Source of the DNA: Dictyostelium discoideum
Lineage: Eukaryota
Length of the DNA: 64,000 nt
Direction: 5' to 3'
NCBI GenBank assembly: GCA_000004695.1
Contig: CM000154.2
Location: 4,640,001 to 4,704,000 of the forward strand
A program made the position numbers and the translations under genes. The notes beneath the pieces are model-generated. The model was not told the DNA's origin. It was given only the letters and a program-made list of their open reading frames with translations, and did not search any database. Each line of letters begins with the position of its first letter. Position 1 is the first letter of the stretch. Below, in pieces: positions 42,925 to 44,848 of this stretch.

Positions 42925-44124
42925 ATGATTTCTTCAGTTTCAACCAAATTAGTAAATATTTTTTTTTTTTTTTAGGAAAAAATAAAAAGAAAAAAAAAAA
43001 AAAAAAAACAAATCACACACAATTAATAAATCTTTTAAAACTTTTTAAAACTAATTTTATCTTTTTTTATTTTTTTTATAATTCTAATTAGAATTCATCA
43101 AAGAAATTATTAAATGTAGTATCATATACTACAGTTGCAAATAATGCAAATAAAAATAATAATAGTAAATCAATTTATAATATTTTAAGAAGAAAGAGAG
43201 ATAGACAAGGTTTAGTTAATGTTGAAGCATTTGAAAATGGTGAAAGTACAGTTTTCCCAAGATCAAGACAAGGTTTAGATTATGATTTAAATTGGACATT
43301 AAATGGTTACTCAATTACACCATCATATTCAGCATATCGTAATCCAAGATTACCATTACTTTTACAACATTCAAATGGTGTAACCGATAAGAACAACGTA
43401 TTGATTACATCATCATCAAGTCAAGAACCAAAAAATGTAGTAAACTTCTTTTTAGATGAAACCATCTCATCAAAGAATAACAAAGATAGTAGTAAAGTCA
43501 TTTCAATCGCAGATTATAAATTAGTTTTGGAAAAAGTTAAACAAAACATTTCAGAATCCACCAATATCTACGTACACGATTCTGCAGTTGGTAGTTGTAG
43601 AGATGTCGAGTCAAAGATCAGATTCGTCACAAATGATGCTGTATCCTCATTATTTGTTAAACATTTATTACCAACCACTACTCCAACTCAAGTAAATGAA
43701 TTTAAACATCAATTAACTGTTTATTGTGTACCAGAATTTAAATTCCCATCATCTTCATCATCATTACCATCATCATCATTCAATATCATTGATACTAAAA
43801 GAGGTATTGCTGTTATCGTTGGTATTCAGTCAACTGAAAACATTAGAAATGTCATCTCTTCAATCTCTTCAAATATCTTAATGAATACCAATCAAGATGC
43901 TCTTAGTTTATCCGCTGATATCTATACCTCATCTGAAGATGCTTCACCAGTACTCATTTTCAATAATGATGGTTTCCTCTTAAATAAGAATTTCGAATCT
44001 GGTAAAGTTGTCTCTCAAGGTGCTATTTGGTCAAAGAATACTCTTTCACGTTTATATAATTCAATTACTTATAATTTTGAATCAATTGCTCAAAATCAAT
44101 TGTAAGTATTTTATTTTAATTTAT

Positions 44125-44161
<37 letters not shown>

Positions 44162-44848
44162 AAAAATATTAATTTATTTGTCAAAATCCCCCCCCCCCCA
44201 AACTTCCATCTTTTTTTTTTTTGTTTTTTGAAAAAAAAAAAAAAAGTGACTTGATTGAAAAATTTGTTGGATCAAAAAAAGTAAATACAACTGTACCAAT
44301 TAAATTCGAAACTAATAGTTTCAAACAACCATCATCAGTTGTATTCATTATTAAAGATAATAGTGGTGTAATTCCAGCATTCTCTCAATTAAATTCTGAA
44401 CAAGCTCAAAAATATTTCGTATCTGGTTTTGTTGGTGATGATGTTTATCAACCATTCTTTATTAAAGAACAAAATACAACTCAAAATATTCAAAAAGCTG
44501 AACTCTTCAAAAGTAAGTTAATTAAATAATTTTTATTTATTTTTTTAATTTATTTTACTAATAATTTATTTTTTTATTTATTTATTTTTAGATTTAATTA
44601 AAGATGGTGGAGTTAATGTATATATTATTAATCCATCCTCTTTCCAAAAAGATGCTGAAGTTGATAAATTACTTGGTTCAATTATGTCTGGTAAAGTTGG
44701 TAAATCAACTACATCTGATGTTTACACTACTTTATCACCAATTCAAGTTTCATCTGCTACTCAACCAAAGAATGCTGAAGAAATTAAAAAATTAGCCAAA
44801 TCTTTTGAATCAAAATTACAAAAACAAGTTGATAGCCTTTTAGTTTAA
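42925..44848 (+). CDS. Phosphoenolpyruvate carboxykinase (ATP)-like protein, divergent; exons 42925..42951, 43092..44101, 44247..44512, 44592..44848
   Basis: Collinear similarity to PckA: 'IYVHDSAVGS...RFVT' versus '[22 protein letters not shown]'; 'VVFIIKDNSGVIPAFSQLNSEQAQKYFVSGFVGD' versus '[34 protein letters not shown]'; 'GVNVYIINPS' versus 'AYLVNTGWNG'. At the P-loop position (G-LSGTGKTTLS) this protein has 'GIQSTENIRN'. Exon 1 (9 codons) is a low-confidence call. Confidence 0.5.

Follow-up and report, generated by a model that had tools for sequence, protein, structure and literature searches.

A catalytically dead phosphoenolpyruvate carboxykinase homolog of Dictyostelium discoideum and its apparent membership of an old family that includes a Euglena complex I subunit

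The locus and its gene model

We analyzed a 64,000-nucleotide stretch of the Dictyostelium discoideum genome (GenBank assembly GCA_000004695.1, contig CM000154.2, positions 4,640,001 to 4,704,000 of the forward strand), referred to here as the window, in which a gene related to ATP-dependent phosphoenolpyruvate carboxykinase (PEPCK) occupies positions 42925-44848 on the plus strand. An earlier reading of this DNA, made from its letters without database searches (the sequence-only reading), proposed four exons and a product lacking the kinase-1a P-loop, and regarded it as a catalytically inactive PEPCK paralog co-opted for another role. The exon model and its coordinates proved correct. Joining 42925-42951, 43092-44101, 44247-44512 and 44592-44848 across introns that all follow the GT..AG rule gives a coding sequence of 1560 nt and a protein of 519 amino acids, identical to the annotated product of strain AX4, DDB_G0290857 (XP_635497.1, Q54FH4). 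NCBI names this product a "hypothetical protein", whereas UniRef automatically names it "phosphoenolpyruvate carboxykinase (ATP)".

Exon 1 (42925..42951) consists of the ATG and eight further codons (MISSVSTKL), a presequence-like start that ends at the GT donor at 42952, and the same 27-nt exon is found in Dictyostelium firmibasis. Exon 2 (43092..44101, residues 10-346) is an uninterrupted open reading frame (ORF) that carries the rest of the presequence, an N-terminal extension, the PEPCK N-terminal domain and a degenerate active-site region. Exon 3 (44247..44512, residues 347-435) encodes strands of the C-terminal domain, including the block 'VVFIIKD...IPAFSQL..EQAQKYFVSGF' that is common to canonical PEPCK, and exon 4 (44592..44848, residues 436-519 and the TAA stop) encodes the remainder of the C-terminal lobe and the terminal helix. 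The exons are separated by introns of 140 nt (42952..43091, with a GC content of ~12%), 145 nt (44102..44246) and 79 nt (44513..44591), all at positions conserved in D. firmibasis. GC content at the locus is ~30% in exons compared to 10-17% in introns and spacers.

A PEPCK fold without the catalytic machinery

The collinearity with PEPCK that had been recognized from the letters alone, including the 'FVSGF' region, was confirmed by a profile search. The Pfam PEPCK_ATP family (PF01293) matches the protein with E=4.5e-26 and 92 bits, relative to a gathering score of 26.5, with the best stretch at residues 128-292, and 'FVSGF' pairs with 'FLSGF' of Escherichia coli. An AlphaFold2 (AF2) model built from a 70-sequence family alignment has a predicted local distance difference test score (pLDDT) of 89.4 and a predicted template modelling score (pTM) of 0.85, with low confidence only in the first ~60 residues; it supersedes an earlier model built from 9 sequences (pLDDT 58.6). 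In a Foldseek search of the Protein Data Bank (PDB), ATP-PEPCKs from Thermus, E. coli and other organisms aligned with template modelling (TM) scores of 0.70-0.74 over ~510 columns, with the PEPCK of T. thermophilus at 0.74. The model thus predicts a complete two-domain fold of the ATP-dependent PEPCK type.

Comparison with canonical ATP-dependent PEPCK (PckA, EC 4.1.1.49; E. coli 1AQ2, Trypanosoma cruzi 1II2, T. thermophilus 1J3B) makes clear both what has been kept and what has been lost. The two-domain fold is common to both and is collinear over ~420-510 residues, and the canonical block 'VxFLxxDAxGVLPPxxxLxxxQAxYxFxSG(F/Y)' is retained. Sequence identity, however, is 15-17%, the Dictyostelium protein is longer by ~60 residues at its N-terminus, where it carries a conserved motif specific to the family, and the P-loop, the Mn2+/Mg2+ ligands and the contacts to phosphoenolpyruvate (PEP)/oxaloacetate and adenine are all changed.

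Active-site residues were scored in a MAFFT alignment of E. coli Pck (NC_000913.3, standard numbering), seven other canonical PEPCKs, DDB_G0290857, a fragment of the Euglena gracilis complex I subunit NDUEG2 and 30 P-loop-less relatives. Among 20 tabulated positions, 19 catalytic, metal, substrate or nucleotide positions were scored and none is identical to E. coli PckA in DDB_G0290857. In the E. coli structures, the Mn2+ ligands are K213, H232 and D269, the Mg2+ ligand is T255, the P-loop lysine is K254 and the kinase-2 pair is D268/D269; R65, Y207, K212 and R333 contact PEP or oxaloacetate, and R449 and T455 adenine. The PDB lists contain engineered PEPCK mutants at K213, K254 and D269. In the Dictyostelium protein, K213 is replaced by N and its neighbor K212 by R, while Y207 has become S and G209 has become E, all within or beside GIQSTENIRN (43821..43850, residues 253-262). 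H232 is replaced by S in LSLSADIY (43902..43925, residues 280-287), the equivalent of E. coli SMHCSAN. D268 and D269 are replaced by S and Q in VVSQGAIW (44007..44030, residues 315-322), the equivalent of the kinase-2 and Mn-site segment LIGDDEHGW. Furthermore, K288 and R333 are both N, R65 is K in a poorly aligned stretch, and the equivalents of R449 and T455, which fall in exon 4, are not conserved. The diverged metal- and PEP-binding signatures reported by the sequence-only reading are therefore borne out at the level of individual residues.

The same holds for the missing GxxGxGKT P-loop, although not for the segment thought to have taken its place. The E. coli P-loop, G248-LSGTGK-T255, aligns with 'N---NDGF' within LIFNNDGFLLNK (43953..43988, residues 297-308; E. 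coli counterpart FFGLSGTGKTTLST), which is three residues shorter and has no Gly-Lys-Thr. GIQSTENIRN had been put forward as the replacement of the P-loop, but in two independent alignments (HMMER profile and MAFFT) it pairs with the PEPCK-specific GGTWYGGEMKK (E. coli 203-213, including K212 and K213), and the true P-loop position lies ~40 residues downstream of it. A six-frame search of 42000-46000 found no Walker A motif, and new splice junctions therefore cannot restore the P-loop. Restoration through shifted exon boundaries was rejected on this ground and also because the region is internal to exon 2, which is long and uninterrupted. A cryptic Walker A in the C-terminal 'SGKVGKST' (residues 467-474) was rejected as well, as it does not fit the pattern [AG]x4GK[ST] and its middle Gly is N, A or T in other dictyostelids.

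The protein also scores far below the NCBIfam pckA equivalog TIGR00224, with 61.9 bits against a cutoff of 590 (~530 short), compared to 990 for the E. coli PckA control. DDB_G0290857 cannot be a PEP carboxykinase, and we consider it very probable that its role is a non-catalytic one.

Selection and conservation in dictyostelids

Between D. discoideum and D. firmibasis, the ratio of nonsynonymous to synonymous substitution (dN/dS) is 0.19 at a dS of 0.33 (Nei-Gojobori), and all three intron positions are common to the two loci. Each of the dictyostelid genomes retrieved (Dictyostelium, Tieghemostelium, Polysphondylium, Acytostelium, Heterostelium and Cavenderia) contains an ortholog, with identities of 45-99%. 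The gene is under purifying selection and is not decaying.

Conservation in dictyostelids extends to the degenerate segments themselves. The former active-site segments have conservation values of 0.83, 0.71 and 0.77 compared to a protein mean of 0.65, with GIQSTENIRN the highest among the segments scored (0.83). Since the replaced segments are at or above mean conservation within Dictyostelia, the face of the cleft appears to have been rebuilt rather than abandoned. Residues R42-R47, P65, R68, G70 and L75-W77, in the N-terminal extension, are invariant among dictyostelids. The core of the sequence-only reading, that the protein is a PEPCK homolog which has lost catalysis and been taken into another role, is supported by non-identity to E. 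coli at all 19 scored positions, the TIGR00224 score of 62 against 590 and the dN/dS of 0.19.

A widespread family of P-loop-less PEPCK homologs

A homolog search with the 70-sequence alignment returned 11 dictyostelid proteins only, and the distant members come solely from an exhaustive search of representatives. In that search, a profile of the dictyostelid alignment was compared to 1.84 billion representatives; 640 proteins matched, and the E-value was 1e-30 or lower for 54. Only 11 of the best 150 of these 640 matches keep the P-loop. Dozens of full-length P-loop-less proteins matched the dictyostelid profile at 1e-77 to 1e-45, whereas the best canonical PEPCK matched at E=2.4e-22.

Family members with a named source were found in other amoebozoans (Ceratiomyxa, Vermistella, Balamuthia mandrillaris, Nolandella, Paradermamoeba and Pellita), in Heterolobosea (strain BB2 and Naegleria lovaniensis), in the glaucophyte Cyanophora paradoxa and in the seed plants Welwitschia and Asparagus. 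When the Asparagus protein served as query, 241 homologs were found in plants. Amborella, Zea, Oryza, Citrus, Quercus and Malus are represented among the top 120 listed, and no Arabidopsis entry was identifiable there. In five aligned Archaeplastida-like sequences (Asparagus, Welwitschia and three others) the P-loop and the metal ligands are absent too. Hundreds of angiosperm orthologs (including P0172-P0290 in our set) carry the automatic name "phosphoenolpyruvate carboxykinase (ATP)" in UniRef or NCBI, which is a systematic mis-annotation.

The family also has a signature of its own. The N-terminal extension (43188..43295), which runs from RRKRDR (residues 42-47) to FPRSRQGLDYDLNW (residues 64-77), follows a consensus, 'RRxxxR...FPxERxGxxYxLNW', that holds throughout the 70-sequence family alignment and takes the form RRKRDR...FPRxRxGLDYxLNW in dictyostelids. 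None of the canonical bacterial PEPCKs compared has this extension.

We built neighbor-joining (NJ) trees, which are distance trees of fast-evolving sequences in which NDUEG2 is represented by a 224-residue fragment rebuilt from printed alignments. All P-loop-less proteins (Dictyostelium, NDUEG2, plants, Cyanophora and Heterolobosea) formed one clade apart from the canonical PEPCKs sampled, in 100 of 100 bootstraps, both when all conserved columns were used and when the tree was restricted to the columns covered by NDUEG2. With all columns, the groups within the clade were roughly organismal: dictyostelids grouped with Ceratiomyxa, land plants grouped together, and Heterolobosea grouped with Euglena, the last in only 48 of 100 bootstraps. 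Ceratiomyxa and NDUEG2 were placed elsewhere in the tree of NDUEG2-covered columns.

Canonical Dictyostelium PCK genes are reported at two different loci, pckA at DDB_G0271678 and pck2 at DDB_G0271904 (PMC11832675). The description of DDB_G0290857 as a PEPCK paralog thus stands as far as an inactive homolog is concerned, but the NJ trees and profile-profile comparison (see below) indicate that it is not a Dictyostelium-specific paralog of pckA. As judged from these comparisons, the gene is not a recent or Dictyostelium-specific duplicate of pckA or pck2 but appears to be a member of an ancient eukaryotic clade of P-loop-less pseudo-PEPCKs that includes NDUEG2.

Relationship to NDUEG2 of Euglena

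He et al. 2024 (PMC10884005) place NDUEG2, which has a PEPCK fold, in a "FAS domain" of five subunits that sits on the tip of the peripheral (matrix) arm of complex I. According to the same account, it lacks two ATP-binding sites, a C-terminal β-strand of NDUFS4 enters its central sheet and thereby ties it to NDUFS1, no PEPCK activity was detected in the sample tested of the supercomplex I+III2+IV that contains it, and the FAS domain is termed Euglena-specific or lineage-specific (PMC10884005). A published subunit table lists T. brucei NDUTB12 and Diplonema DIPPA_18104 as the counterparts of NDUEG2 (PMC12699882). NDUTB12 is recorded for each of the three trypanosomatids whose NADH dehydrogenase preparations are tabulated (PMC8312217), and the trypanosome counterpart has been listed as a euglenozoan-specific subunit.

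In a phmmer search of the PDB, the Dictyostelium protein matched NDUEG2 (8J9H/8IUF, chain E2) at E=1.3e-5, alongside true PEPCKs. Intermediate sequences gave a closer connection. A member from the heterolobosean BB2 (P0032) matches NDUEG2 at 2.2e-28 compared to 1.6e-7 or weaker for canonical PEPCKs, and the heterolobosean member matches the dictyostelid profile at 1e-47 compared to 2.4e-22 for the best canonical sequence. When the dictyostelid alignment was compared by hhalign with a Discoba group of Heterolobosea and NDUEG2, the result was E=3.2e-48 with a score of 363 over 440 columns, whereas comparison with the canonical ATP-PEPCK group gave 1.6e-29 and a score of 231. In addition, the MAFFT alignment has a three-residue gap at the P-loop in the Dictyostelium protein, in NDUEG2 and in most of the 30 P-loop-less relatives (plant, heterolobosean and others), a gap that all eight canonical sequences lack.

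The two proteins are thus alike in their PEPCK fold, the loss of the ATP-binding machinery, the three-residue P-loop deletion and their placement in one NJ clade, and the Dictyostelium protein has an N-terminus of mitochondrial type, but they also differ. The C-terminal domain of NDUEG2 is incomplete (PMC10884005), and the match of NDUEG2 to the family profile is confined to residues 137-366; in the Dictyostelium protein this domain is present in full (TM 0.74 to full-length PEPCK). We also observed an insertion of 11-13 residues, '..F(T/I)Px(R/Q)IVEEFxGPxPxDLG..', in NDUEG2 (8J9H_E2), in the heterolobosean BB2 and Naegleria proteins and in three relatives (the last five proteins being P0032, P0073, P0080, P0082 and P0106). 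This insertion is absent from the Dictyostelium protein and from the other amoebozoan and plant members, and it may be a marker of a sub-group within the pseudo-PEPCK family. The truncated C-terminal domain and the insertion look like specializations of Discoba or of Euglena rather than features of the whole clade.

Taken together, these sequence comparisons indicate that DDB_G0290857 belongs to the same kind of pseudo-PEPCK as NDUEG2 and NDUTB12, a kind that would then be ancient and widespread and not restricted to euglenozoans. A search of the literature accessible to us found no report of such PEPCK-like proteins outside Euglenozoa, no mention of DDB_G0290857 or Q54FH4, and nothing relevant on PEPCK-like or carboxykinase-like proteins in connection with complex I or mitochondria. 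The wide distribution of the family appears to be unreported.

The N-terminus and mitochondrial location

Residues 1-41 of DDB_G0290857 contain 5 K/R, no D/E and 11 S/T, and all dictyostelid orthologs are similar in this respect. The part of this region encoded in exon 2 (43092..43187, residues 10-41) is disordered in the AF2 model, as is the presequence-like region as a whole, and the conserved family-specific extension comes after it. The first 30 residues carry a net charge of at least +2 in 59 of 66 full-length family members, and in 41 members they include no acidic residue. Family members have the canonical N-terminal 'YRN' motif 45-95 residues into the protein, compared to ~20 residues in the two canonical sequences that show it (P0093 and P0101). 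The N-terminus of DDB_G0290857 thus has the hallmarks of a matrix presequence and, considering this composition together with the location of its Euglena homolog, import into mitochondria is likely. Organelle targeting by the nine-codon first exon and the basic region that follows, suggested by the sequence-only reading, is accordingly probable, with a basic and acid-free N-terminus resembling those of 59 of 66 family members.

Other features of the window

The upstream neighbor of DDB_G0290857 (37869-42458, plus strand) is a single ORF of 1529 codons with many poly-N/Q/T/S runs and no Pfam domain; in D. firmibasis a large gene (L002:1-5723) occupies the matching position. Synteny with D. firmibasis extends from this large upstream ORF to the downstream protein kinase and Cupin_8/JmjC genes, which are in the same order and orientation in both species (49040-50023, plus strand, and 57072-58415, minus strand, in the window; L002:11678-13002 and L002:13417-13994 in D. 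firmibasis).

Two compositional oddities lie within and beside the gene. Intron 2 contains a 12-nt poly-C run (44188-44199) amid ~90% A+T and beside long poly-A and poly-T tracts, which is unusual for non-coding DNA of Dictyostelium. Downstream of the gene, two short GC-rich islands (45133-45176 and 45240-45270) stand in a spacer of ~12% GC, the second being cggcctttgcaaccatacgcgcctacggtcg followed by a run of T. These islands might represent a gene for a small RNA or some structured element; an Rfam scan of the window and of the islands found no family at E<=1.

Elsewhere in the window, a 2813-residue ORF (12972-21413, plus strand) combines type I fatty acid synthase/polyketide synthase domains (KS, AT, DH, ER, KR and ACP) with a C-terminal type III chalcone-synthase domain, as in "Steely"-type hybrid polyketide synthases. 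A flavin-dependent halogenase (Trp_halogenase; 7665-9476, minus strand) is found ~3.5 kb upstream of it on the opposite strand. To judge from the DDB_G02908xx numbering, these two genes are probably the stlB/chlA pair of DIF-1 biosynthesis. The window also holds two tandem paralogous genes on the minus strand (4529-5722 and 6192-7415), each with a full DUF4419 domain (E ~1e-102), a ComC-family protein with DUF7035, DUF7034, DUF7949 and ComC supersandwich domains (24736-27213, plus strand) and a RhoGAP-SH3 protein (61462-62973, plus strand).

A possible role at complex I

Our combined findings lead us to propose that DDB_G0290857 encodes a catalytically dead protein, probably targeted to mitochondria, in which both domains of the ATP-PEPCK fold are complete, and that this protein most likely has a structural or scaffolding function in the matrix, exerted through the binding of partners. 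The binding surfaces would be the remodelled yet still conserved face of the former active site and the family-specific N-terminal extension, and the likeliest docking site would be the NADH-oxidising N-module of complex I, as complex I provides the only experimental anchor of the family. We put a non-catalytic mitochondrial scaffold docked on the complex I of Dictyostelium at somewhat less than an even chance, and it is the docking step that sets this estimate.

The use of enzyme folds as structural parts has precedents. NDUFA10, with a deoxynucleoside-kinase fold, and NDUFA9, with a short-chain dehydrogenase/reductase (SDR) fold, are non-catalytic or accessory subunits of mammalian complex I, the same logic that is proposed here for the Dictyostelium protein. 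For plants and other lineages outside the opisthokonts, γ-carbonic anhydrases are reported as part of complex I (PMC2900272), and a malate dehydrogenase is described as tethered to the ATP synthase of Acanthamoeba (PMC13632651). The folds of these four are unrelated to that of PEPCK, and their association is experimental, as is that of the family members of Euglena and trypanosomatids with complex I, whereas the association in Dictyostelium is inferred from one homolog.

Several observations weigh against docking on complex I in Dictyostelium. When compared directly, the two proteins are not especially close: the single-sequence match to NDUEG2 (E=1.3e-5) is on par with those to canonical PEPCKs, and the dictyostelid profile matches NDUEG2 at E=1.6e-10, no better than canonical PEPCKs at 5.7e-16. 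The evidence for the link thus comes from intermediate sequences, from the comparison of profiles with each other and from a distance tree, and long-branch attraction could have contributed to it. The family profile, when compared with every chain in the PDB, found canonical PEPCKs and NDUEG2 only. Complex I structures of plants, Polytomella and ciliates exist in the PDB and, to our knowledge, none contains a family member, even though angiosperms encode one. Because the family is absent from these structures despite its presence in angiosperms, stable binding to complex I is not universal in the family. Furthermore, NDUEG2 is described as being held by an unusually long NDUFS4 and NDUFA6, among other subunits of the domain termed Euglena-specific (PMC10884005), and its C-terminal domain is truncated whereas that of the Dictyostelium protein is complete.

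Several of these observations favor a protein of the NDUEG2 clade that is mitochondrial and dead but independent of complex I in Dictyostelium, with recruitment to complex I being a euglenozoan innovation. Such a protein might form a soluble scaffold in the matrix, act in assembly or like a chaperone, or serve as a regulator that senses a metabolite (oxaloacetate, PEP or a nucleotide). Attachment of NDUEG2 through long NDUFS4/NDUFA6 and neighbors in the domain termed Euglena-specific (PMC10884005), the complete C-terminal lobe in Dictyostelium and the lack of family members in solved non-euglenozoan structures would all be expected in this case, and the conserved segments of the former cleft would also suit binding of a ligand. 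However, the sole experimental anchor of the family is complex I, many extra subunits are known in amoebozoan complex I, and the residues of the cleft that bind adenine, phosphate, metal and substrate are all changed, with no alternative polar constellation conserved across the family. We regard independence from complex I as a serious possibility, if a doubtful one. The changes in the cleft also weigh against the idea that the protein is still an enzyme or a tight binder of a small molecule with a rebuilt active site, which might use another phosphoryl donor or carry out a non-kinase reaction. The full two-domain fold has been kept, with high model confidence, and GxxSTENIR and ESGKVVSQGxxW are strongly conserved within Dictyostelia, which speaks for this idea. 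Yet all three Mn2+ ligand positions (K213, H232 and D269), the Mg2+ ligand T255 and the P-loop lysine K254 are changed and the P-loop is shortened, the replacements conserved in dictyostelids are not conserved in the wider family, and no PEPCK activity is reported for the Euglena supercomplex I+III2+IV sample containing NDUEG2 (PMC10884005). A retained enzymatic or binding function is, in our estimation, improbable.

Pseudoenzymes often regulate their active paralogs, and with canonical PCK genes elsewhere in the genome, DDB_G0290857 might instead be a cytosolic, inactive paralog that regulates the pckA and pck2 products or acts as their partner, for example by heteromerization. This is difficult to reconcile with the presequence-like N-terminus of the Dictyostelium protein and of the family, with a clade that is ancient and separate from the canonical PEPCKs, and with the intramitochondrial position described for the characterized homolog NDUEG2 (PMC10884005), and we consider it very improbable. 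The loss of all catalytic motifs could at first sight also hint at decay, that is, at a pseudogene or an artefact of the gene model. This we rejected, leaving it next to no probability: the identity to the annotated protein and the dN/dS of 0.19 refute it, the 519-codon ORF is intact with three GT..AG introns at conserved positions, exons have ~30% GC compared to ~12% in introns, and orthologs exist throughout Dictyostelia and far beyond.

Returning to a scaffold that docks on complex I, it is conceivable that the association is far older and broader than Euglenozoa. The PEPCK-fold subunit would then be a vertically inherited pseudoenzyme of early eukaryotes, kept in Amoebozoa, in Archaeplastida (angiosperms, Welwitschia and Cyanophora) and in Discoba. 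Outside opisthokonts it would so far have been overlooked as a widespread partner of the complex I N-module, either a loosely attached accessory subunit or an assembly factor. We consider this broader scenario rather unlikely.

Implications

Our findings correct the automatic annotation "phosphoenolpyruvate carboxykinase (ATP)" that UniRef attaches to DDB_G0290857 and to hundreds of plant orthologs, none of which can be this enzyme. They also tie an uncharacterised Dictyostelium gene to the sole structurally characterized pseudo-PEPCK, a subunit of Euglena complex I, and suggest that the family is far wider than the Euglena-specific or euglenozoan-specific label given to the NDUEG2 domain and to the trypanosome counterpart. 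Should the link to complex I hold in amoebae or plants, the evolution of the accessory shell would include the ancient recruitment of a dead gluconeogenic enzyme and its later loss in opisthokonts. Should it fail, a very old and conserved mitochondrial pseudoenzyme would be left to explain. If a widespread subunit of the N-module is indeed what these proteins represent, DDB_G0290857 would provide a genetically tractable entry to the function of the family.

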